From the NCBI GenBank assembly GCA_964350735.1, contig CAYGKO010000002.1:26134-90133 (forward strand): a DNA stretch of 64,000 nucleotides, written 5' to 3'. The notes beneath the pieces are model-generated. The model made no database searches. It saw only the letters and a program-made list of their open reading frames with translations, and had not been told where the DNA came from. The stretch comes from an uncultured Candidatus Saccharibacteria bacterium (GTDB lineage Bacteria > Patescibacteriota > Minisyncoccia > Phycocordibacterales > UBA918). How positions within the stretch are numbered: position 1 is the stretch's first letter; every line of letters begins with the position of its first letter. Positions 2,843 to 59,325 of the stretch are shown here, piece after piece. The translations under genes were made by a program, and so were the position numbers.

Positions 2843-3382
2843 ATGAACCTGAATAAATTTGAAACAATCGGAATCGGAGTAAGTATCGGTGCTATGGTGT
2901 TGGCGTTATTTTTACTGCGCGTAGAATCTAGCAACAATCTCACTCTCACCTCAGATACTGCGGCAGACCAAGCAGCAGCTATCATCGTTGGGTCTGAAGG
3001 TAACCAAGACGCTGAGCTCGCAACTGCGATCCTCGAAGGATCTTCTCCATCTGGTGAAATTCAGCGATTGATTATCGATGACGTTGCGTTTGGTTCTGGA
3101 CCAGAAGTGGTAACAGGGGATACTATTTCAGTAAATTACATTGGCACCCTCCAAAATGGACAGGAGTTCGATAACTCAATTAAGCGAGGGGAACCCTTTA
3201 CTTTCACTGTTGGCGCCGGGCGGGTGATTGCAGGCTGGGAACAGGGTGTGGTTGGGATGAAGGTGGGCGGGCAGCGTGTGTTGGTAATTCCCTCCGACCT
3301 AGCCTACGGCGACCGTGGGGCTGGTCCCATCCCTGGTGATGCGACGTTGGTGTTCGCGATTGAGCTACTTTCTATCAACTAA
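2843..3382 (+). CDS. FKBP-type peptidyl-prolyl cis-trans isomerase, membrane-anchored
   Basis: C-terminal FKBP domain (GDTISVNYIGTL..GQEFDNS..FTFTVGAGRVIAGWEQGVVGMKVGGQRVLVIP..YGDRGAG..IPGDATLVF). N-terminal hydrophobic anchor. Confidence 0.8.
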   Translation: MNLNKFETIGIGVSIGAMVLALFLLRVESSNNLTLTSDTAADQAAAIIVGSEGNQDAELATAILEGSSPSGEIQRLIIDDVAFGSGPEVVTGDTISVNYIGTLQNGQEFDNSIKRGEPFTFTVGAGRVIAGWEQGVVGMKVGGQRVLVIPSDLAYGDRGAGPIPGDATLVFAIELLSIN

Positions 3383-4590
3383 TGGCTGATAAACCAGTTA
3401 CATTTGAGATAATTAAGCGTCAAAAAGGCACTCTTGGCCGAGCTGGTGTTATTCATACTCCTCATGGTGATATCGAAACACCAGCTTTTGTGTGTGTAGG
3501 AACTAAGGGGACGGTAAAGAGTCTCAAGTCAGAAGATATGCGTGACTACGTCGGTAATCAAGTGGCACTTGCCAATACCTACCATCTTTTTTTGCAGCCA
3601 GGCGATGATGTAGTGAAAGAAGCGGGCGGTTTACACAAATTCTCTAACTGGGACATGCCGACTATTACTGATAGTGGGGGATTTCAGGTATTTAGTCTGG
3701 GAGCAGCTTTTGGGAAAGGAGTGACTAAATTTGCGCAAAATGCGGCCGAAGCTGATGCAGTCGCTGAGAAGTCGGGGCTTAATGTCTACTCACAAGAACT
3801 GGCCAGTGAGCATGGTAAGCTCTGCGTGATTGATGAAGAAGGGGTTACCTTCACCTCACATATCGACGGTTCAATGCACCGCTTCACCGCCGAACGTTCA
3901 ATTGATATTCAACACAACATTGGTGCGGACATTATTATCGCTTTTGATGAGTGTACGAGTCCAACTGCCGATAAGGAGTATCAGATCGAAGCGATGAACC
4001 GTACTCATCGCTGGGCGAAGCGTTCAATTATGGCGCATAAGCAGAACTATGACGCCTTAAAGAAGCAGGGTCTCTACGGTGTGGTACAAGGTGGACGACA
4101 TCTTGATCTACGGGCGGAGAGTGCTACCGCGCTGGCTGATATGGATTTTGATGGTTATGGGATTGGCGGCAGCTTCACCAAGGCTGACTTGGGTGAAGCA
4201 GTGCGTACCGTGAACGAAATTTTACCGGAAGACAAACCACGGCACTTGCTTGGAATCGGAGAACCCGGAGACATTGTGGAAGGAGTAGCGCTTGGCTGTG
4301 ACACGTTTGACTGTGTCGCTCCCACCCGTATCGCTCGTACCGGAACTATTTACGAAACTACCAATGCCGGGCACCAGCGAACCAACCTGTTAAATCAAAA
4401 ATACATCCGTGATTTTAGTAAGCCTGACGAATCATGCGATTGTTACGTCTGTACCCACTACACCAAAGCCTACCTAGCCCACCTCTTCCGCTCCAAAGAA
4501 ATGCTTGGTCCGCACTTAGCGTCACTGCATAATCTTTATTACATCGTGAATTTCACTAAGAAACTAAGGGAACAAATATTAACAAGCTGA
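3382..4590 (+). CDS. tgt: queuine tRNA-ribosyltransferase (tRNA-guanine transglycosylase)
   Basis: TGT-family motifs: the FDCVAPTRIARTG segment and the C-terminal zinc site CDCYVCTHYTKAYLAHL. The start overlaps the FKBP stop (TAATG). Confidence 0.88.
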   Translation: MADKPVTFEIIKRQKGTLGRAGVIHTPHGDIETPAFVCVGTKGTVKSLKSEDMRDYVGNQVALANTYHLFLQPGDDVVKEAGGLHKFSNWDMPTITDSGGFQVFSLGAAFGKGVTKFAQNAAEADAVAEKSGLNVYSQELASEHGKLCVIDEEGVTFTSHIDGSMHRFTAERSIDIQHNIGADIIIAFDECTSPTADKEYQIEAMNRTHRWAKRSIMAHKQNYDALKKQGLYGVVQGGRHLDLRAESATALADMDFDGYGIGGSFTKADLGEAVRTVNEILPEDKPRHLLGIGEPGDIVEGVALGCDTFDCVAPTRIARTGTIYETTNAGHQRTNLLNQKYIRDFSKPDESCDCYVCTHYTKAYLAHLFRSKEMLGPHLASLHNLYYIVNFTKKLREQILTS

Positions 4591-4645: not shown

Positions 4646-4798
4646 ATGGGAGTAGAGAAGGTAGGGATAGGTGTTATGGGCGGCTATGTTATTTCAGCAA
4701 TTATCGGAGCGGTTGTATTCTTCGCTCTGACAGGAGTTCCTCTGACTATGGTCGTAGGAGCTCTTGCCGGAGCTATTGGATATCGACTTGGCAAATAG
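4646..4798 (+). CDS. small glycine-zipper membrane peptide (50 aa; possibly GlsB/YeaQ/YmgE-like)
   Basis: My own translation: MGVEKVGIGVMGGYVISAIIGAVVFFALTGVPLTMVVGALAGAIGYRLGK, with two short hydrophobic segments and GxxxG repeats. An alternative in-frame start lies at 4676. Confidence 0.35.
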   Translation: MGVEKVGIGVMGGYVISAIIGAVVFFALTGVPLTMVVGALAGAIGYRLGK

Positions 4799-4804
4799 CA
4801 CTTC

Positions 4805-4836
4805 GCGCGGCAGCAAGTTCAGCTGCCGCGTTTTTT
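4805..4836 (+). terminator. rho-independent terminator (gcggcagc-aagttca-gctgccgc + TTTTTT)
   Basis: Perfect 8-bp GC stem followed by a T6 run immediately after the small peptide ORF. It occupies the region the ORF track assigned to the uvrB N-terminus. Confidence 0.7.
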
Positions 4837-4920
4837 GTGTTTCGTTATAACGTTTGCAGTGTGCGCTTGGGTGCCCGATCTACCTTTTTTTATATTTTAA
4901 ATCTAAGGTATAGTACGGGG

Positions 4921-6951
<2,031 letters not shown>

Positions 6952-6967
6952 CATGCTAGGATAGGGT

Positions 6968-7327
6968 ATGAAAAAAATTGCCCTTATCGAAGATGATCAG
7001 TTTATTCAGGATTTTGTGTCTGGTAAATTGATAGAAGCTGGTTATGCCGTCACTGTCTGTAGTGATGGTGAAGCTGCTGTGGGTCATATTATCGAACAAA
7101 TACCGGATGTGGTTTTACTTGATCTTGATCTGCCAAACTTGTCTGGTCATGAAATTCTTAAAGTGTTACAAGTAGAAGAAAGTACTAAGAACATACCCGT
7201 GATTATTTTTTCCAATAACGATGACCCAGATTTGAAAGAGAAAATGATCGCCGCTGGAGCGAAAGATTTCTATATGAAAGCGGTGACTAACCCTGCAGAA
7301 CTCATCTCAAAGATTGAGTCGGTGTAA
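6968..7327 (+). CDS. response regulator, receiver (REC) domain only
   Basis: CheY-like fold: acidic pocket DD near the N-terminus, phospho-acceptor Asp in VVLLDLDLP, conserved K in the AAGAKDFYMK region. No output domain. Confidence 0.8.
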   Translation: MKKIALIEDDQFIQDFVSGKLIEAGYAVTVCSDGEAAVGHIIEQIPDVVLLDLDLPNLSGHEILKVLQVEESTKNIPVIIFSNNDDPDLKEKMIAAGAKDFYMKAVTNPAELISKIESV

Positions 7328-7380
7328 GTTATCGACAGGTGTTGAAAATATATGAGTAGAAGGGGCGTATACTATAGGAA

Positions 7381-10353
7381 ATGAGTCCGGCAAAAAAGGC
7401 AACGGCCCGAAAAACCGCACCTAAAAAACGAGCGGCATCTACGCGTACAACCAAGGTGACGCCAAAGAAGCGGGTGACCAAAAAACCGGCAGTTACAACT
7501 GTGCGTAAAAAGGTGGTGAAAAAGGTGATTAAGAAAAAGATCCTGGTTAAAAAAACCGCACCAAAAGCCGAAAAAAAACTAAAACCAAGAAAAAAGGGAA
7601 CTATTTCAAATACTTTTGCAAAAGGTGACAAGAAGCCTTTTTCGTTCCCACAATCTGTTTCGTTGGCTATTATTGCCATGCCTAAACTGCCGGTTGATAT
7701 TGACACCCTCGCAGTCAGTATGGCTCGTTACGGGGGACTTTCGATGGTTGTCGTAGGGGCCTGTTTTTCTTTGTTTTATGCCCAAGCAGTTGGGCTTCAA
7801 ATGCCAAGTGTTTCAAATATAGCCGAAGTTATTAGCGGTGTTGCTGGAAGCACAACCGAAACAAGTACCGGAGCGAACACTGCTTCAGTGACTATAAATA
7901 AAACCCCGGGAGCTAACTTTGAAGTATCTGGGCAAAATCCTAGAAGTCGTGATGTTCAGGTACGCATTGATGTACCTCTGGCCAAACGAGTCACGGTGTT
8001 TGCATTTCATACTGATACGCAAGAGTACATTTTGTTAGGACAAGCTTCGATGGAAGGATCAGACCAGTGGAGTCTGATTTGGGACACTACAAAATACGTT
8101 GATGGAGCATATAAACTAAAAGCGGTTATTTTAAATGAGTTTGGTTCCTATGATGGATTTAGCCAAAAACAATTTGATGTCAGTAATCAATCAGAAAGTA
8201 ACGATGATCAAACTGAAATAGATGAAGAAGAGGTTTCAGATGCTGCTCACGAAACAACTGAAGAGGAATCTCATTCGGAAACTGAAGCTGGGTCGCTAGA
8301 AACTACTGATACAACTGAAGGTTTAGAAGATGTTTTCAACCAAACTGAGACTGACGACACTGTAAAGCTTCCTAATGATCCTGTGGATTTACTTACTTCG
8401 GTCGCGCCAGATAAACTGGAAGCACTAATTTCTTTTTCACCTAAGGAAGCGGGGGTGGTGTCAGTGCTTGTTCGTCCTAATTATAGTGCAGATACTGTGT
8501 TACTTAAGGCAATTCATCGTGAAACAGGGACGTTGTATGATTTAGGTAAAACTACAAATACTGGGGATAGGCGATGGCGCTTTGATTGGCAAACAGCTAA
8601 CAAAGATGATGGTATCTACGCCGTGTATGCAGCTGTGAGTCTTGATGGAGAAAGTTATCTATCGAAAAAATTTAACTTTGAAGTAAATAAAAATTTCACT
8701 ACCGTCGAAGCGGTATCACTTGAAAGTCCAGATGAGAAGATTGAGACGACCGCACCGAATGCTGTTCCTGCAGAAGAAGCGGTAGTACCAACTGCAAATA
8801 ATTTCGCAGTGGCACTTACTATTCCGGTTCGTGATGTCTACACGGGACTAGTTGAAATCATTATCGCTGCGCCAGAGGCATCATTTGTTGAGCTGTATTC
8901 TCGTAATAAATCTGCTAAAAACGAACGCTTTTCAGGCTTGGCGAAAAAGGTAGGAGTTGATACCTGGAGATTTGTGTGGGATACAACTAATGTACCAAAT
9001 GGTGAATACGTACTTAAAAGTAAGGTGAGAGCCAATGGTCAGCTCATGGAAAAGACTTCTTCGGTACTTCGAGTAGAAAATAAAATAATTGCCTTTACCA
9101 CTGATACTGATGCAGTTAACGAAGCTCGACAAGAAGTCTTGAGCTCTAATGACTCTGCCGTTGAGCAGGTACGAGCAGCTGCCGAAGCTCTCACCGTAAG
9201 TGGTTCTGATGAGAGCGCTGCTGCGCCGGTGCAAAAAATTACACTATTGGAAAAAAGACGAATCGAAGAGCTGTCTCCAGCCAGGCTACTTGAAAGTTCA
9301 ATCCTGACAGTAGATGAATTTCCTGAGGCAATTGAATTAGATTCAGAGACTGAAGAAATTGTGGAAACTACAGTGGAAGATCTCTTCACTGCGTACCAGG
9401 AGCGGGTAAATGCTGTTATGCGGGGGGTGGCTTTGGCGGTACGTTCTGGTGACGAAACAGCAATTTCATTAGCTAAAAAAACAGTGGCTGACTTACGAGA
9501 AGATATCCTTTCGGAAGTACTTAACTCTGATGTATCAGCTGAACTTACGTCTTTCATTGATAATAGACTTTCCCGTGAGTTAGCTCGTTTAAAGGTACGT
9601 ACCGAGGCAGATGAAAAGCTAATTAATAACCGAGTCGATACCGATCTCTCAAAGGACTCGGACCAAGATGGGGTGACAGACTTTGACGAAATTAACTTGT
9701 ATGAGACTGATCCGCTGGTAGCGGACTCTGATAATGACGGTTTCAATGACGGAATTGAAATTCTAAGTGGTTACGATCCTCGTAATGCTTCAACTGAAGC
9801 TGTGGTTGAGTATGAGTCTCCAAAGAAGGCTGGTGTAGTACGTGAGGATTTATTTGTGATCGAATCTATTACCACACTTACTCCTGATAGTGCCTTATCT
9901 AGTAACAAAAAGACGCCCGAGGCAGTGATTAGTGGGCGAGCACTCCCAAATAGTTTCGTTACGTTGTATGTCTTCAGTAACCCCGTAGTGGTGACCGTGA
10001 AAACAGATGCTGATGGTAATTGGAGCTATCGGTTCGACAAAGAGATTGCAGATGGTACTCATGAAGTATATGTAGGAGTGACAGACAATGCTGGGCGGGT
10101 AGTGGCTAAAAGTGAACCAGTACGGTTTGTAAAGACGGCCGAAGCGTTTACTCCGGTAGATGCTGCTGAGAACGTTGCGGTTGCACAAACTGAAACCCAG
10201 AAGTCCCTTATTAGTTCCAGCTCAGTGCTGCTTATCGCTTCTGTTTCAGTTGTTGCTATTGGTTTAATTTTGATCCTCTTGGGTCTGCATTTACAAGGTC
10301 GCAAAGAAGATCATTTTATTTTTAGCGGAGAAAAAGACACTGCATCAGTATGA
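7381..10353 (+). CDS. large two-TM cell-surface protein with lysine-rich cytoplasmic N-tail and TSP3-like calcium-binding repeats
   Basis: Residues 1-80 are a KK/PAKK-rich basic tail. TM near SMVVVGACFSLFYAQAVGL. Long acidic/Thr-Ser-rich ectodomain with DSDQDGVTDFDE...DSDNDGFNDGIE (DxDxDG thrombospondin-type-3-like). C-terminal TM LLIASVSVVAIGLILILLGL. The 3' end overlaps the kinase start by 4 nt. Confidence 0.6.
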   Translation: MSPAKKATARKTAPKKRAASTRTTKVTPKKRVTKKPAVTTVRKKVVKKVIKKKILVKKTAPKAEKKLKPRKKGTISNTFAKGDKKPFSFPQSVSLAIIAMPKLPVDIDTLAVSMARYGGLSMVVVGACFSLFYAQAVGLQMPSVSNIAEVISGVAGSTTETSTGANTASVTINKTPGANFEVSGQNPRSRDVQVRIDVPLAKRVTVFAFHTDTQEYILLGQASMEGSDQWSLIWDTTKYVDGAYKLKAVILNEFGSYDGFSQKQFDVSNQSESNDDQTEIDEEEVSDAAHETTEEESHSETEAGSLETTDTTEGLEDVFNQTETDDTVKLPNDPVDLLTSVAPDKLEALISFSPKEAGVVSVLVRPNYSADTVLLKAIHRETGTLYDLGKTTNTGDRRWRFDWQTANKDDGIYAVYAAVSLDGESYLSKKFNFEVNKNFTTVEAVSLESPDEKIETTAPNAVPAEEAVVPTANNFAVALTIPVRDVYTGLVEIIIAAPEASFVELYSRNKSAKNERFSGLAKKVGVDTWRFVWDTTNVPNGEYVLKSKVRANGQLMEKTSSVLRVENKIIAFTTDTDAVNEARQEVLSSNDSAVEQVRAAAEALTVSGSDESAAAPVQKITLLEKRRIEELSPARLLESSILTVDEFPEAIELDSETEEIVETTVEDLFTAYQERVNAVMRGVALAVRSGDETAISLAKKTVADLREDILSEVLNSDVSAELTSFIDNRLSRELARLKVRTEADEKLINNRVDTDLSKDSDQDGVTDFDEINLYETDPLVADSDNDGFNDGIEILSGYDPRNASTEAVVEYESPKKAGVVREDLFVIESITTLTPDSALSSNKKTPEAVISGRALPNSFVTLYVFSNPVVVTVKTDADGNWSYRFDKEIADGTHEVYVGVTDNAGRVVAKSEPVRFVKTAEAFTPVDAAENVAVAQTETQKSLISSSSVLLIASVSVVAIGLILILLGLHLQGRKEDHFIFSGEKDTASV

Positions 10354-11687
10354 TCTCAAAATTGTTGTTTGCGCTTGAGACCGCCTGGTCGTATGTGAAG
10401 CAGCATCCGCAAATTCAATTTGCATTTTTACTTATCTTTGTACTACCATTACTTTTTTTGTATTCAAGTAATCAATTCCTTGAAGCAGGTCGTGCCAACC
10501 AAGATAAGTTGCAGCGTGATCGAGTTGGTCTTCTGCATGATTCATTCGCCTCACTATTGTCTGCTACAGAATTTAATCCGGCCACTGCACAAAAGGAATT
10601 AATGGCAATTTCTGAACTGAATCAGGATATTACAAAGTTTAGAGTTGTTTGGCAAAATGGTAAGGAGTTCACACCAATTGCAGCATTGGATGAGAGTATT
10701 TTAGGAAGATCCGAGGAAGGGATATCACTCTATCAAGCCTCGGCGGCACGCTTTGATGAATCCCTTATCTTTCCTTTCTTTTTAAATGATGTTCGTTATT
10801 GGCAATCAGTCAGGGCTATACAGGCTACCGATGGCCAAAATTTTTTTATACTTACTGAAAATTCATTTGAACAAGTTGATAGCTATCTAAAAAATCAGGA
10901 AAGAACAGCATACATGTCATTACTTTTGGTGTATGTGGTGCTGTTAGGGATAGCATTTTGGCTAATTAGACTCACAAATTATAGAAGCCTCTATGATCAA
11001 GCTGAGCAGGCGATTAAGACTAAGGATTTATTTTCAAATATGATTGCTCACGAGCTGAGAGCACCACTTACCGCTATCAAAGGATATTCAGCCATGGCTG
11101 CGGAAAGCGATGATTTAGCTAAAAATAAAGAACATGCTGGCAAAATCACTGCTGCTTCCGATAGATTACTTGCAATAGTAAATGATCTGCTTGATATAGC
11201 TCGCATTCAGTCAGGCAAGCTGTCTTTTGAAATTGAGAAGCATAATGTTCAAGATACTATTTCTGCGGTGCAGGCAGAACTGCTCATATCAGCCCAACAA
11301 AAAAATATAGCGATCTCTATCGAAAACGATGCCTCCGAAGCTATAGCTTTGGTTGACCCAAAGCGACTACATCAAGCGCTCACAAACTTGGTGAGTAATG
11401 CAATTAAATATACAAAAGAAGGCGAGATATCAATTAGTGCTGAAGAAAAAACTACTGTAGTTGAACTCCGTGTCAAAGATACTGGGATGGGGATTTCGGC
11501 GGAAGATCAGCAAAAACTGTTTGCTCCATTTTACCGAGTGGAATCTACTGATGTGAGCAAAATAACGGGTACTGGACTAGGTATGTGGATTACCCGTCAG
11601 CTGATCGAACTAATGGGCGGATCTATTGGGGTAGAGTCTATCAAGGGGGTTGGTACCCATGTGGTGATTTCACTGCAGAAGCGTTAG
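10350..11687 (+). CDS. sensor histidine kinase (two TM, periplasmic sensor, HisKA + HATPase_c)
   Basis: H-box [14 protein letters not shown]-box (LVSNAIKYT), G1 (DTGMGI) and G2 (GTGLGM) boxes. Two hydrophobic helices flank a sensor loop of about 150 aa. Confidence 0.85.
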
Positions 11688-11753: not shown

Positions 11754-14384
11754 ATGGCTAAGAAAAAAACTACAAAAACTGAATGGGGAGAAAATGATGA
11801 AAAAATCATTGTTCGAGGTGCGCGCACCCATAACTTAAAAAATATCGATGTTGAGATGCCGCGCGGTAAAATGATCGCGATTACCGGACCGTCTGGTTCT
11901 GGTAAGTCATCGCTTGCCTTTGATACTATCTTCGCTGAAGGGCAGCGACGCTATGTTGAGTCACTGTCCCCGTACGCACGACAGTTTTTAAACAAAATGC
12001 AGAAACCTGATGTGGATGAGATTTCCGGTCTGTCCCCAGCTATTTCAATTGATCAAAAGTCAGCCAGCCGTAATCCACGCTCAACCGTTGCAACAATTAC
12101 TGAGATTTATGATTATCTCCGTATTCTGTACGCTCGGGTTGGACAACCGTACTGCCTTGACGTAGATGTTGAGATTCAGAAGTTGTCTCAAGATGAGATT
12201 CTGGGCATCGTTTTAAAGTCAATTGAAGATAAAGAAGTTACAACGGCCAAGAAAGCTGCCGAAAAGGTGATGGGTATAGAGGTTAGTAAAGGACGAGTAA
12301 GTATCTTTGCGCCAGTTATAGTAGGACGAAAGGGTGAATACTACCAGTTACTCTATGACCTCCTCGGAAAAGGATTTGAAACCGTAAAGATTGACGGTCA
12401 GATCAAACAGCTACGAGACAAGATTGAGTTAACTAAAACAAAACGACATGACATTGATGTGTTAGTTGATGAGATCTACGTTAGTGAGTTTACTGACGAC
12501 CCAAAGGGCTCCCGCGAACGATTATCTGAAGCAGTGGAGCTCGCACTACAGCAAGCCAATGGATTGGTGAAGATTGAATCACCAGACGGCAGTGAGCGCA
12601 CCTTATCAGCCAAGTTTATTTGCCCAATTGATGGTTCATCATTCCCAGAAGTGGAACCGCGACTCTTTTCTTTCAATTCACCGTATGGTGCCTGTCCCGA
12701 ATGTAACGGTCTTGGTGTAGTGGGGATTTTTAATTCAGATGTGTGTGAAAGTTGTAAAGGGGCCCGGTTACGCCCTGAAGCCTTGAGGGTATACCTCGGT
12801 GGGGACGGTAAGAAGAATCTTGGGATGAACATCGTTGACTTCACTCGATTGACCGTGAAAGAAGCTACTGACTTCATTGACTCCCTTAAACTTAGTAAAA
12901 AACAGCACGATATTGCTTGGCCAGCCCTACGGGAAGTAATCGAGCGCTTACAATTTATGAATAATGTCGGGATCGAATACCTAACGCTTGACCGTCGTGC
13001 TAATACGCTTTCGGGTGGAGAAGCACAACGTATTCGATTAGCGTCTCAGCTTGGATCTGGTTTAGTGGGTGCGCTGTATGTGCTCGATGAACCGACCATT
13101 GGTTTACACCAGCGCGATAATGATAAGCTGATCGAAACCCTAACTGAGCTACGTGATCTGGGGAATACTATTATCGTCGTTGAACACGATGAAGATACAA
13201 TTTACGCTGCTGACTACATCGTTGATATTGGTCCTGGGGCGGGTATTCGGGGTGGGGAAGTGGTGGTGGCAGACTTCTTGCCAAAGTTACTTAACGCGCC
13301 TGCAAACACTTTTAACTCAATCACAATCGATTATCTACGTGGCGATAAAAAAATCGAGATCCCAGAGCGACGCACCGGAGAAAAGGGTTCAATCAAGATC
13401 CGCGGTGGTAAGGCATTTAATATCACTAACCTGAACGTCGACATTCCACTTGGTCGACTGATTAGCGTGACTGGAGTGTCAGGTTCGGGAAAGTCTACCT
13501 TCATGTACGAGTTGTTACACAAAAACTTACAAGCCAAAATGGAAAAGAAGTACCGTACTGCGAAGGTCTACAATATCAAATCAATCACCGGTACTGAGTA
13601 TTTAGGACGCTCTATTTTGATCGACCAATCTCCAATTGGTCGCACGCCACGCTCTAATCCAGCCACCTACACCGGGGCCTTCACTCATATTCGTGACATG
13701 TTCGCTGCCAGTAGTGAAGCCAGAGCGCGCGGTTGGAAACCAGGACGTTTCTCCTTCAATGTAAAAGGTGGACGCTGCGAAGCCTGTCAGGGTAATGGTG
13801 TAATTGCAGTTGAGATGCACTTTTTACCAACAGTGTACGTGGGGTGTGATGTGTGTGATGGTAAGCGTTTTACGAAAGAAACCTTGGAGGTGTATTACAA
13901 AGGCAAGAATATCCACGAGGTACTCCATATGACTGTTGAAGAAGCCACCGAATTCTTCAAAGAAGTCCCAGCTATTTATGAGCGACTGGCTAGTTTGGTA
14001 AATGTAGGATTAGGATACTTAGAGCTTGGTCAAAGCGCGACCACGCTCTCTGGTGGAGAAGCGCAGCGTGTGAAGATCGCCTCAGAGCTCTATCGTCCAC
14101 ATACGCAAAAAACTATTTATCTACTCGATGAACCAACGATTGGACTCCATTATGAAGATGTGAAGAAGTTGATTGAAATTCTCCAAGAGCTGGTAAATCG
14201 TGGTAATACCGTCATGGTCATCGAACACAACCTCGACCTGATCAAATGTTCTGACTACGTACTCGATATTGGTCCTGAAGGCGGCGCTGGTGGCGGTCAG
14301 CTAGTGGCCAAAGGCACCCCCGAAGAAGTGGCAGAAAATATCAAGTCGCATACTGGGAAATATCTTAAGAAACATCTTAGGTAG
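11754..14384 (+). CDS. uvrA: excinuclease ABC subunit A (UvrA)
   Basis: Two ABC ATPase modules (GPSGSGKSS and GVSGSGKST Walker A; LSGGEAQR signatures twice) and zinc-finger Cys clusters (CPECNG, CEAC/CDVCDG). Confidence 0.92.
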
Positions 14385-14386
14385 TT

Positions 14387-15163
14387 ATGTCTGAAAATTT
14401 TATTTTTAAGCCCAAAACTGAATCAGTACAGCCAGAAGACATTGTTGCTCTGGAAACACCAGAAGAGTATCTGAAGGTACTTTTCTGGAGTTTTTTACTA
14501 TCACAAGGTGATGGAGGAGCACAGGGTCAGGTGCTTCGGTTCTGCCACCAGATGACCGGCCCTGTCCCAAACGATGTATTTCAAGGTGCTGCAAATATGT
14601 TTATTGATAAGTATATGGTGCAGGGAGATTTTGCTGACAATCTTAAACGAATACATGGACATTATGGATTTCCAAATGTGACACCTGAGTACTATGATGC
14701 GCATGCACCTAGGCACACTACAGACACACCACGTAAATCTCTACAGTATACGCTCAGGCTGATGAATTTTAATCCAACGCGGGAAGGAGTTTCAGGGTAT
14801 ATTCCAGGGTTATTCGCAGGAAAGACTTGGAATACCGATTATAAATATTTGTGCAGTAAAAATAGCCAATTTGGTGACGGCCGACCTGAAGCGATCTTGC
14901 CTGCGAATGGTAAAGATCTTTGGGAAAGCTTTGGAGTTCGTTTCTTTATAAAACAAGAAGCTATGCCTCCAATACCTGTTTTAAAATTATTTTTACAAAA
15001 CGAAATGCAAAGAATGCCCTGTATCGAAAAAAAATATGATCAAGGTGAAGAGCTGTATGCTAAGGAAAAAGTTGCAGCAGTGATGGATGTGTACGATGCA
15101 AAGCATCCAGAGCAAACACTAACCAAGCAAGAACGAGATGCGTATCTCGGGGTTTACAATTAG
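14387..15163 (+). CDS. hypothetical protein (258 aa), translationally coupled to uvrA
   Basis: The start ATG lies 3 nt after the uvrA stop. I recognise no domain. Soluble, His/Tyr-rich. Confidence 0.45.
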   Translation: MSENFIFKPKTESVQPEDIVALETPEEYLKVLFWSFLLSQGDGGAQGQVLRFCHQMTGPVPNDVFQGAANMFIDKYMVQGDFADNLKRIHGHYGFPNVTPEYYDAHAPRHTTDTPRKSLQYTLRLMNFNPTREGVSGYIPGLFAGKTWNTDYKYLCSKNSQFGDGRPEAILPANGKDLWESFGVRFFIKQEAMPPIPVLKLFLQNEMQRMPCIEKKYDQGEELYAKEKVAAVMDVYDAKHPEQTLTKQERDAYLGVYN

Positions 15164-15627: not shown

Positions 15628-16863
15628 GTGAAAAAAGAGGATTTAGTCAAAAAGAAATTACCTGACAACCCGGGGGTGTATTTCTTCTTAGGGTCTAGGA
15701 AGGAGATTTTATATATTGGGAAAGCTACCTCGCTGCGGAATAGAGTACGAAGTTATTTTACGCATGATATTAAAGAGAAGCGTTCAGAGTTGATAGAAAA
15801 AATGGTGACGGTCTCTAAAACAGTGGACTGGACAGAAACTGACAGCACTTTGGAGGCGCTTATCTTAGAGACAAACCTGATCCGTACTCATAAACCTTTT
15901 TATAATACTCGAAGTAAAGATGATAAGTCATACAACCACCTTATTATTACTAATGAAGAATGGCCGCGAGTATTAGTCATACGTGGTAAGGATCTGACTG
16001 AGCAATATACGGAAAAAGATATTAAGTATCATTTTGGGCCATTTCCGAGCGGCTTGCTATTCCGTGAGGCACTCAAAATAATCCGTAAGCTATTTAAATT
16101 TTATGACACGAAAGAACCATTAGGGGCAGAGAAGTCCAAGTTCGCTCGGGGTAAGATTGACTTCAATCGCCAAATTGGATTATATCCAGAGAATCATTCA
16201 AAAGCTGAATACTTACGAACGATTCGTCATATTAGACTCTTTTTTGAAGGTAAGAAACACCTGCTTATAAAAGAACTTAACAAAGATATGATGCGAGCAG
16301 CTAAGCAAGAAGAGTTTGAGATTGCTGGCAGTATAAAGAAGAAGATTTTTGCCTTAGAGCACATTCAGGATATCGCTCTGATTCGCGATGATACCAAGGT
16401 ATATAGAGATGAAAAAAGTGTCCGAATTGAAGCATATGACATTGCTCACATGGGTGGTCAGGACATGGTTGGTGTGATGACGGTAGTAGAAAATGGCGAA
16501 CCGAAAAAATCCGACTACCGCAAGTTTAAGATCCAGTCAGTGAGCGGCAGCAACGATCCTGCAGCACTGAAAGAAGTACTAGAGCGCCGTCTAGGGCACC
16601 CAGAATGGCCATTCCCGCAAATTATTGTGATGGATGGTAGTACAGCTCAGAAAAACGCTGCCGAATTTGTCTTACGGAAGCTTGGGCTGGTGATACCAGT
16701 GGTCGCTGTAGTGAAAGATGAAAAACATAAACCTATCAGGTTGATAGCTTCAAAGAAACTAACTGATCAATATAAGGATCTCATTTTGCTAGCAAACGCA
16801 GAGTCCCATCGTTTTGCAATCAATTATCACCGGCGTTCTAGTCGCAAAAGGAAACTTTTATAA
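15628..16863 (+). CDS. uvrC: excinuclease ABC subunit C, short form lacking the C-terminal HhH domain
   Basis: N-terminal GIY-YIG (GVYFFLGSRKEILYIGKATSLRNRVRSY), UVR motif (EFEIAGSIKKKIFALEHI) and RNase-H-like endonuclease domain (YDIAHMGGQDMVGV...IIVMDGSTAQ). It ends at 411 aa where UvrC is usually about 600. Confidence 0.8.
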   Translation: MKKEDLVKKKLPDNPGVYFFLGSRKEILYIGKATSLRNRVRSYFTHDIKEKRSELIEKMVTVSKTVDWTETDSTLEALILETNLIRTHKPFYNTRSKDDKSYNHLIITNEEWPRVLVIRGKDLTEQYTEKDIKYHFGPFPSGLLFREALKIIRKLFKFYDTKEPLGAEKSKFARGKIDFNRQIGLYPENHSKAEYLRTIRHIRLFFEGKKHLLIKELNKDMMRAAKQEEFEIAGSIKKKIFALEHIQDIALIRDDTKVYRDEKSVRIEAYDIAHMGGQDMVGVMTVVENGEPKKSDYRKFKIQSVSGSNDPAALKEVLERRLGHPEWPFPQIIVMDGSTAQKNAAEFVLRKLGLVIPVVAVVKDEKHKPIRLIASKKLTDQYKDLILLANAESHRFAINYHRRSSRKRKLL

Positions 16864-55725: not shown

Positions 55726-56103
55726 ATGAGAATTTCAGGTATTACAATTCCAGACGACAAACATCTCTCACACGGCCTTACCGCTGTATACGGGATCGGC
55801 TACTCTCGTGCTGCTGACATCCTTACGGAGCTCAGTATTGACCCGGATATCAAGCCAACTGATCTTTCAACTGATCAAGAGACTGCCATCCGAGAGAAAG
55901 TTGAGAGTTTTTCTATTGAAGGAGAACTTAAGCGAAAGATCTCATCAGACATCAAGCGATTGAAGGATATTTCTTCATACCGCGGATCACGACACGCAAA
56001 GCGTCTACCAGCTCGAGGACAGCGAACTAAAACAAATGCTCGTACCCTCAAAGGAGCTAAGAAGACTATGGGTAGTGGTAAGCGTAAGCTTGAAAAGACG
56101 TAA
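55726..56103 (+). CDS. rpsM: 30S ribosomal protein S13
   Basis: MRISGITIPDDKHLSHGLTAVYGIGYSRAADIL aligns to S13. Confidence 0.9.
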   Translation: MRISGITIPDDKHLSHGLTAVYGIGYSRAADILTELSIDPDIKPTDLSTDQETAIREKVESFSIEGELKRKISSDIKRLKDISSYRGSRHAKRLPARGQRTKTNARTLKGAKKTMGSGKRKLEKT

Positions 56104-58923: not shown

Positions 58924-59325
58924 ATGGCAACTGCAAAATACATTGAAGGTATCGGACGTCGAAAGACCGCATCAGCGCGAGTTCGTTTGACTCCAGCCAA
59001 AGAAACCACTATCGATATTAACGGAAAGAAGTTAGAAGAATACTTCCCACACCTTTCACTACAAAGTGACGTGCAGTCTATTCTTAGTACTGCAGAGGCT
59101 GGTATTGAGCACTACACCATCACTGCGAAAGTATCAGGTGGAGGTATCTCATCTCAAGCCGAAGCAATCCGACTTGGAATTGCTCGTGCTCTGGTAAAAG
59201 AAAAGGCAGACCGACGTGGTGTACTGAAGCCACTTGGTTTCCTTAAGCGAGACCCGCGTTCAGTGGAACGTAAGAAGTTCGGTCTCCGAAAAGCTCGTCG
59301 AGCACCACAATGGTCGAAGCGTTAA
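58924..59325 (+). CDS. rpsI: 30S ribosomal protein S9
   Basis: GRRKTASARVRL... with the C-terminal KFGLRKARRAPQWSKR. Confidence 0.9.
   Translation: MATAKYIEGIGRRKTASARVRLTPAKETTIDINGKKLEEYFPHLSLQSDVQSILSTAEAGIEHYTITAKVSGGGISSQAEAIRLGIARALVKEKADRRGVLKPLGFLKRDPRSVERKKFGLRKARRAPQWSKR

Follow-up and report, generated by a model that had tools for sequence, protein, structure and literature searches.

Sensor histidine kinases (HKs) are in several bacterial systems encoded beside a membrane-anchored extracellular protein, as has been described for WalK and YycH/YycI of Firmicutes, MtrB-LpqB, LiaS-LiaF and SaeS-SaeP/Q. Accessory proteins of the WalK kind act through contacts between transmembrane (TM) helices. 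The Patescibacteria (candidate phyla radiation, CPR) account for a large part of the diversity of bacteria, grow attached to other cells and possess very few regulators; to our knowledge, almost nothing has been reported on how they sense a host. In this work we have analyzed a locus of an uncultured Candidatus Saccharibacteria bacterium, contained in a stretch of 64,000 nucleotides of contig CAYGKO010000002.1 (the whole stretch is called the window below), in which the genes for a receiver-only response regulator (REC), a membrane protein of 990 amino acids (the big protein) and a sensor HK lie between uvrB and uvrA. The comparison of related loci demonstrates that the conserved unit is the pair of big protein and kinase and not the trio. 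We propose, with a probability of about one half, that the big protein is the extracellular partner, or accessory co-sensor, of a WalK-like kinase in a two-gene unit of the Patescibacteria.

The big protein and its coupled kinase

The pair was followed through related genome and metagenome loci and contigs, which were found via homologues of the HK and are numbered here with the prefix L. In 20 of the 20 loci measured the HK gene comes directly after the big gene, at a distance of -17 to +15 nt, and in 11 of them the two genes overlap in an ATGA. In the window the kinase ATG overlaps the stop of the big gene by 4 nt, as the first-pass annotation of this DNA had noted, and 4-nt overlaps occur in the called genes of L099 and L100. 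The measured loci include four distant relatives without uvr genes, receiver gene or lysine tail. No match to uvr genes or to the REC gene was found in the flanks of the distant pairs L023, L024, L025 and L028, the kinases of which are 28-33% identical to that of the window, and the annotated neighbours are unrelated (PIF1, AbiEii and RadC in L024; DUF2339 and DUF3999 in L028). The persistence of the coupling through such a change of context, at this low level of HK identity and among unrelated neighbours, speaks for a partnership of the two products. An alternative genetic code was considered for L023 and L025 and dropped, the HK open reading frames (ORFs) being intact under table 11.

In the close clade the order FKBP-TGT-uvrB-(REC)-big gene-HK-(variable)-uvrA-uvrC-Ddl is kept, with UvrA 78-88% identical to that of the window. 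The first-pass annotation had suggested a conserved trio of regulator, big protein and kinase next to uvr genes. The synteny check did not bear out either part of this proposal: the REC gene is missing beside the orthologous HK in five of about 15 related loci (L006, L015, L017, L095 and L096), and the uvr adjacency is a lineage-specific synteny limited to the close clade. A functional link to nucleotide excision repair was rejected as unsupported, with the distant pairs located elsewhere.

The family of the big protein is large and carries no name in the sources consulted. An exhaustive HMMER search gave more than 1000 clusters (50% identity) at E<1e-30, the best 150 being nearly all 800-1050 aa long; word-index searches, whether started from the big protein or from a 70-sequence profile, returned only 2-4 matches, probably on account of low-complexity words. 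The HK has more than 100 orthologues at 50-77% identity over its whole length, the sensor included. No description of the family or of its pairing with the HK was found in a limited literature search.

The big protein was modelled with AlphaFold on 70 relatives (mean pLDDT, the model confidence score, of 72) and its TM helices were assigned from hydropathy together with the AlphaFold helices. A disordered polycationic N-tail is followed by a juxtamembrane helix and TM1, in which R116 and G126 are invariant. The ectodomain has a net charge of -68. It begins with three Ig-like β-sandwiches (Ig1-3; pLDDT >90) separated by acidic disordered linkers (pLDDT <50; aa 273-344 and 440-473), continues with a helical bundle for which neither a family match nor a significant Pfam match was obtained, and reaches the membrane through two DxDxDG-type motifs and a Big_13 domain; TM2 and a cytoplasmic tail of 18 aa complete the protein. 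Big_13 (PF19077) was recognized above its gathering cut-off (49.6 bits vs 27, aa 842-911) and TSP3_bac (PF18884) fell just under (24.2 bits vs 25, aa 782-797). The two motifs, putatively Ca-binding, are readable at aa 759-770 and 782-793, and D759, D761, D763, D769, E770, D782 and D790 are invariant among 134 full-length relatives, which are about 30-44% identical to the window protein. A conserved TAEAF(T/S)P is found about 20 variable residues ahead of TM2. A search of PDB sequences with the family profile found no match, and no LPxTG, the mark of a sortase-anchored protein, was seen in the translated big protein.

The only sensible topology for this predicted architecture is N-in, loop-out, C-in, because the N-tail carries a charge of +33 and the Ca-binding and Ig domains lie in the middle; the big protein is thus read as a hairpin-anchored surface protein with both ends in the cytoplasm. 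The two TM segments of the first-pass annotation are confirmed by hydropathy and AlphaFold. Its DxDxDG repeats resembling thrombospondin type 3 are real as motifs, two in number and not a long array, and "giant" overstates what is nonetheless a membrane protein of 990 aa.

The HK is recognized by Pfam through HisKA (59.4 bits) and HATPase_c (98.4 bits), and H234 and the N/G-box residues are invariant in 111 homologues. It is composed of TM1, an extracytoplasmic domain of about 145 aa (aa 42-185, nt 10473-10904), TM2, the dimerization and phosphotransfer domain (DHp) and the catalytic domain (CA). In the AlphaFold model DHp comes directly after TM2, with no HAMP domain, and a cytoplasmic PAS domain is likewise absent. 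The model is confident in residues 40-200 (pLDDT >90), where a long helix leads out of TM1 and the chain continues through another helix and five strands to a last helix that enters TM2. This order suggests a PDC-like (single-Cache-type) sensor, an assignment made from secondary structure and not from a scored match. Foldseek matched the HK model best to full-length WalK of the WalK-YycH integrative model 9a5d (601 columns aligned), and the top NCBIfam matches are WalK and PnpS, both far below cut-off (HK_WalK, NF033092: 170 bits vs 725). Of the hallmarks of WalK, namely HAMP, PAS and a YycH/YycI partner, none was found here; Pfam gave no YycH or YycI match for the big protein.

Conservation along the two proteins is graded. 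In the big protein the median identity to the window sequence is 71% for Big_13, the most conserved part, 65% for the TSP3 motifs, 56% for TM2 and 35% for TM1; it falls to 21-31% in Ig1-3, the fast-evolving distal part, and below 20% in the linkers. The corresponding values in the HK are 52-53% for TM1 and the first sensor helix and 48% for TM2. The conserved positions in TM2 of the big protein are S954, G961, L964 and G968, three of them small (S954, G961 and G968); this helix is more conserved than a passive anchor needs. The distant big proteins have an ordinary signal peptide in place of the tail and TM1, and keep only the C-terminal module of helical part, TSP3 motifs, Big_13 and TM2. Judged from these alignments, the membrane-proximal module common to the distant HK-linked relatives is under the strongest constraint.

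Gene coupling and conservation together argue for the big protein as an extracellular partner of the kinase, and the conserved promoter of the pair, the WalK-like match of the kinase model and the adhesin-like fold of the ectodomain speak in favour as well. Its variable outer part, the three Ig-like domains on flexible acidic linkers and the helical bundle, would be a stalk facing the outside, and the conserved module of two TSP3 motifs, Big_13 and TM2 would stand beside the PDC-like sensor and the TM helices of the co-translated kinase. The module might report on whatever the stalk comes to contact, or on the condition of envelope or Ca2+, and so set the kinase/phosphatase activity. The phosphate would then pass to output-less receivers acting by protein-protein contact, the adjacent 119-aa REC being one of them where present. 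Several points weigh against this proposal. Tight gene coupling also fits simple co-expression; in L029 the big protein occurs with no membrane HK beside it; no known family of accessory proteins (YycH, YycI or others) matches it by sequence; and the roughly 20 pairs are too few for co-variation analysis.

The same data bear on a simpler explanation, in which the big protein has two anchors and a structural or adhesive role at the surface, as an envelope spacer or a host-attachment stalk, and the kinase is only co-expressed with it or regulates its expression, with no partnership in sensing. Foldseek against the PDB retrieved with the ectodomain only generic tandem Ig/FnIII arrays of adhesins and S-layer proteins, adhesin extenders (6xi3) and SiiE (2yn5) being on top. 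The highly acidic ectodomain with its Ca motifs is typical of Ca-stabilised adhesins, although NCBIfam Ca_tandemer (NF033510) reached 35.9 bits against a cut-off of 50, in one stretch only. The fast evolution of the distal Ig domains is what would be expected of a host-facing part, and the retention of the big gene without membrane HK in L029 would be easily understood. On the other hand, an adjacency within 17 nt, mostly with start/stop overlap and kept down to about 30% HK identity in changed neighbourhoods, exceeds usual co-regulation, TM2 is far more conserved than an anchor alone would need, and no DNA-binding regulator that might control transcription of the big gene is encoded nearby. 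We therefore regard the adhesin explanation as rather unlikely, though deserving serious attention; if the pair were merely a co-expressed adhesin and kinase, the finding would be an ordinary one. A family of more than 1000 clusters paired with one conserved kinase offers a concrete candidate for a surface-sensing unit in Patescibacteria.

The lysine-rich tail

The N-tail of the big protein had been described in the first-pass annotation as a KK-rich cytoplasmic stretch of 80 residues resembling histone H1 or AlgP. The lysine-rich character stands, the length is about 104 aa, and the resemblance to H1 and AlgP proved to be one of composition: HC2 of Pfam reached 11.4 bits against a cut-off of 40 (E=0.33) and no regular Lys-Ala-Pro repeat was found. 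The tail contains 29 K, 6 R, one D and one E, giving a net charge of +33 (33% K+R), and is rich in K, A, P, T and V. Among the 134 relatives 128 have a tail of at least 60 aa with a net charge of at least +12 (median: 104 aa, net +22). Its sequence is barely conserved (columns only 25% conserved) and no motif recurs, so that only composition is kept. Lys-rich tails as a general habit of the proteome were rejected for the window, in which cationic stretches of like strength were found only in the ORFs 55726-56103 and 58924-59325, both of which look like ribosomal proteins.

A start at Met-100, by which the tail would be lost and a simple signal peptide left, was rejected because the upstream frame is open in the relatives and a -10 box lies at a fixed distance from Met-1 (TATA[AC]T, 6-10 nt ahead of its ATG in every orthologous locus examined). 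Neither a -10 box nor a Shine-Dalgarno (SD) motif precedes Met-100. In the window the tail frame is open for about 100 codons, and the other two frames contain 5 and 6 stops in 105 codons. The tail is thus translated, as first proposed. No codon-level comparison of the tail could be made with L098, the closest relative, whose contig begins inside the big gene. Six A-runs of 6-8 bases (A8 at 7571, A7 at 7549) occur in the tail-coding DNA between 7392 and 7595; at these runs polymerase or ribosome might slip within the gene of a surface protein.

REC-less loci have the tail and so does L029, which shows it to be independent both of the REC gene and of the membrane HK; the distant HK-linked relatives are without it. 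For these reasons the tail is best regarded as a clade-specific addition, acquired later in one large clade, which would fix the N terminus inside the cell. By its composition it most likely binds a polyanion, such as DNA, RNA, polyphosphate or acidic lipid.

If the ligand were nucleic acid, bound non-specifically, the big protein could itself be the output of the system, a membrane-tethered binder of nucleoid or RNA (by ToxR-like logic with no helix-turn-helix) linking the surface to the chromosome. Such a role would agree with a long disordered tail whose H1-like composition is kept in 128 of 134 relatives and with the weak compositional similarity to chlamydial HC2. We hold it to be highly doubtful, given that the HC2 score is far below threshold, the tail has no conserved motif and the distant HK-linked relatives have no tail at all; binding of acidic lipid, or a role in topology alone, would likewise account for this composition.

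An extended version of the co-sensor proposal is a contact-sensing device special to ultra-small episymbionts, in which the Ig stalk would touch the host, the Ca2+/Big_13/TM2 part would inform the kinase and, in the tail-bearing clade, a tail of +20 to +35 would tether nucleoid, RNA or polyphosphate to the site of contact. We consider this elaborated device improbable. If it existed, a surface receptor would feed a phosphorelay that has no transcription factor as its output and would at the same time be joined to an intracellular polyanion, and we know of no described bacterial receptor that combines those features.

The receiver gene, promoters and neighbouring genes

The product of the REC gene consists of a Response_reg domain (76.3 bits, Pfam) in 119 aa with a net charge of -11. 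Its acidic pocket is intact (E8, D9, D10, D52 and S82; K104 is also readable). Pfam and NCBIfam revealed no DNA-binding output, in agreement with the first-pass annotation, and a lost output domain would not fit into the 53 nt between its gene and the next. In NCBIfam it is closest to the receiver halves of OmpR/PhoB-type regulators, with all scores far short of the cut-offs. Measured against a classical transcriptional two-component system, the locus has the HK domains and the receiver Asp pocket and is without the DNA-binding output and the linked pair of HK and response regulator. No REC or HK besides those of this locus was found in the 64-kb window. The REC gene is present in the window, in L002-L005, L016, L099, L100/L101 and in one JGI contig, and with its absence from the five loci named above it is optional at the locus, that is facultative across related loci.

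The first-pass annotation had suggested a signalling or scaffold module of the regulator and the polycationic tail; in the model drawn from it, the REC, once phosphorylated, would dock on this tail and the three products would form a membrane scaffold. The opposite charges (-11 and +33), the missing output domain and the neighbourhood of REC gene, big gene and HK in the window and in about nine related loci would suit such an arrangement. The tail, big gene and HK nevertheless persist in the five loci with no REC gene at the site, and hence a REC-tail interaction cannot be the core function. Moreover, the REC gene lies upstream of the promoter of the big gene, directly behind uvrB; the tail is conserved in composition and not in sequence; and most receiver domains are acidic, which makes the charge complementarity non-specific. 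The docking model appears to us very improbable.

The idea of one two-component operon around the big gene, also part of the first reading, was given up, as it left no place for the conserved promoter-like element which we found downstream of the REC gene and ahead of the big gene. The element consists of a -10-like TATACT and of the box GTTATCGACA upstream of it (Table 1). The box precedes the big gene in nearly all loci of the family, with or without a REC gene upstream, and is located at the same place in L002-L006, L015-L017, L097 and L099-L101; in L095 and L096 it is degenerate (TTATCTACA-like). The combined pattern of box and -10 is met just once in the window, where chance would give 0, and in about 1 Mb of related-locus DNA it is rare outside the big-gene promoter, occurring almost only there. 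A general promoter element was rejected on account of this uniqueness and near confinement; matches of GTTATCGACA with one mismatch number 6 in the window vs 3.5 expected, no more than chance would give. The box is a candidate regulator-binding site.

The TATACT has the look of a leaderless-type promoter, from which the big gene and the HK would be read as a separate transcription unit. The REC gene is without a -10 box of its own and probably co-transcribed with uvrB. Its box-less start 16 nt past the uvrB stop, together with the conserved boxes before the big gene, indicates that it rides with uvrB and that big gene and HK have a cis element to themselves. No terminator was found between the HK gene and uvrA.

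A strong intrinsic terminator (4805-4831) is located ahead of uvrB, and a small hydrophobic ORF of about 50 aa lies ahead of it (region 4647-4831). The terminator is followed by TATAGT (4909-4914) and a GTG at 4921, which is probably the true start of uvrB instead of the listed 4837 and fits the leaderless pattern of the genome; UvrB alignments of relatives begin at query residue 13-30. In the window as a whole, a TA[TC]A[AC]T box stands 5-9 nt ahead of the ATG at 13 of 64 long ORFs (about 0.6 expected by a rough estimate; examples at 270, 19051, 36296, 46222, 52795 and 59736), and an SD-like motif at only 5. Judged by these frequencies, translation in this CPR genome seems commonly to begin on leaderless mRNAs.

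Every gene between 2.8 and 18.7 kb of the window is carried on the + strand, and the order and coordinates of uvrB, REC gene, big gene, HK and uvrA agree with the first-pass annotation. Between uvrA and uvrC an ORF of 258 aa is wedged, for which Pfam gave no match and tblastn found no counterpart in the related loci; these have other small ORFs or nothing in its place. L003-L005 carry, between HK and uvrA, three more genes, coding for a FIST protein, for the core of a soluble HisKA/HATPase kinase and for a double receiver, none with an output domain. In L029, where the big gene with its tail sits between uvrB and uvrA without a membrane HK, a soluble-kinase/double-receiver set is found upstream of the big gene. 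An HD_4 gene (RelA/SpoT-type HD) occupies the junction of TGT and uvrB in L096 (3702-4334) and in the JGI 3300056388 contig, by which the synteny block is seen to tolerate insertions at several junctions. The irregular occurrence at the site of receiver-only proteins, a FIST protein and a soluble kinase hints at a phosphorelay with non-transcriptional output.

Table 1. Features of the locus and of related loci. Positions are those of the window unless a related locus is named; ranges given as aa are residues of the big protein.
Feature	Position	Strand	Basis or remark
FKBP gene	2843-3382	+	
TGT gene	3382-4590	+	
uvrB, upstream neighbour	4921..6951 (ORF list: 4837-6951)	+	Pfam UvrB, UvrB_inter, Helicase_C
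REC-only response regulator, 119 aa	6968..7327	+	Pfam Response_reg alone
Upstream box GTTATCGACA	7328..7337	+	30-32 nt ahead of the big-gene -10-like box
-10-like TATACT	7368..7373	+	7 nt ahead of the big-gene ATG
Big membrane protein, 990 aa	7381..10353	+	ORF
Polycationic disordered N-tail, aa 1-105	7381..7695	+	pLDDT <50 for aa 1-102; composition; frame 0 the sole open frame
Juxtamembrane helix and TM1, aa 107-139	7699..7797	+	AlphaFold helix 107-136; hydropathy; invariant residues
Three Ig-like β-sandwiches, aa 176-268, 348-436, 478-566	7906..9078	+	AlphaFold (confident sandwiches at aa 179-267, 348-435, 478-565), Foldseek
Helical bundle, extracellular, aa 575-757	9103..9651	+	AlphaFold helices
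Two TSP3-type DxDxDG motifs, aa 758-800	9652..9780	+	TSP3_bac; invariant columns
Membrane-proximal Big_13 Ig-like domain, aa 826-925	9856..10155	+	Pfam; AlphaFold strands
TM2, aa 945-972, then short cytoplasmic tail	10213..10296	+	AlphaFold helix 946-972; hydropathy 3.1
Sensor histidine kinase, 445 aa	10350..11687	+	Pfam HisKA + HATPase_c
uvrA, downstream neighbour	11754..14384	+	Pfam UvrA_inter, ABC_tran
258-aa ORF	14387-15163	+	
uvrC	15628-16863	+	genuine uvrC (Pfam)
FIST/soluble-kinase/double-receiver insert	L003 8391-11280; L004 14131-17026; L005 12811-15714		

Comparison with known systems

The single-domain regulators of the CheY/DivK kind are similar to the REC of this locus in size, in the full phospho-acceptor pocket and in the missing output domain. 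They differ in context, as neither chemotaxis genes nor a DivJ/PleC setting is found here, the profile matches point to OmpR/PhoB-type receivers and the gene is dispensable at the locus. With chlamydial Hc1/HC2, Pseudomonas AlgP and the C-tail of mycobacterial HupB/MDP1 the big protein shares a long disordered polycationic segment rich in K, A, P and T; in the big protein this segment forms the cytoplasmic N terminus of a membrane protein, lacks a regular KPAA/PAKK repeat and gives no significant profile match.

The ectodomain recalls the Ca2+-stabilised Ig-repeat adhesins (SiiE, the large adhesion proteins with BIg extenders and TSP3/Big_13 surface proteins) in its tandem Ig-like sandwiches, acidic character, DxDxDG motifs and Big_13 domain. 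Here there are four Ig-like domains and not dozens, the protein is held by TM anchors at both ends instead of being secreted by a type I secretion system (T1SS) or linked by sortase, and it is paired with a kinase.

The systems WalK-YycH/YycI, MtrB-LpqB, LiaS-LiaF and SaeS-SaeP/Q are the nearest in arrangement, a membrane HK with an extracytoplasmic PDC-like domain encoded beside a membrane-anchored extracellular protein, and WalK is also the nearest in structure. The kinase of this locus differs from WalK by the lack of HAMP and cytoplasmic PAS domains, by its distance from the WalK profile and by a linked regulator without a DNA-binding domain. Unlike YycH and YycI, which are encoded downstream of their kinase, the big protein is encoded upstream and translationally coupled, and with its 990 aa, two TM anchors, Ig and TSP3 elements and polycationic tail it is a partner of another build. 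Each of the domain types is known, and so are kinases with accessory membrane proteins. New are a widespread unannotated CPR family with near-obligate translational coupling to one kinase lineage, a double anchor combined with a polycationic disordered tail, and a signalling site populated only by output-less receivers.

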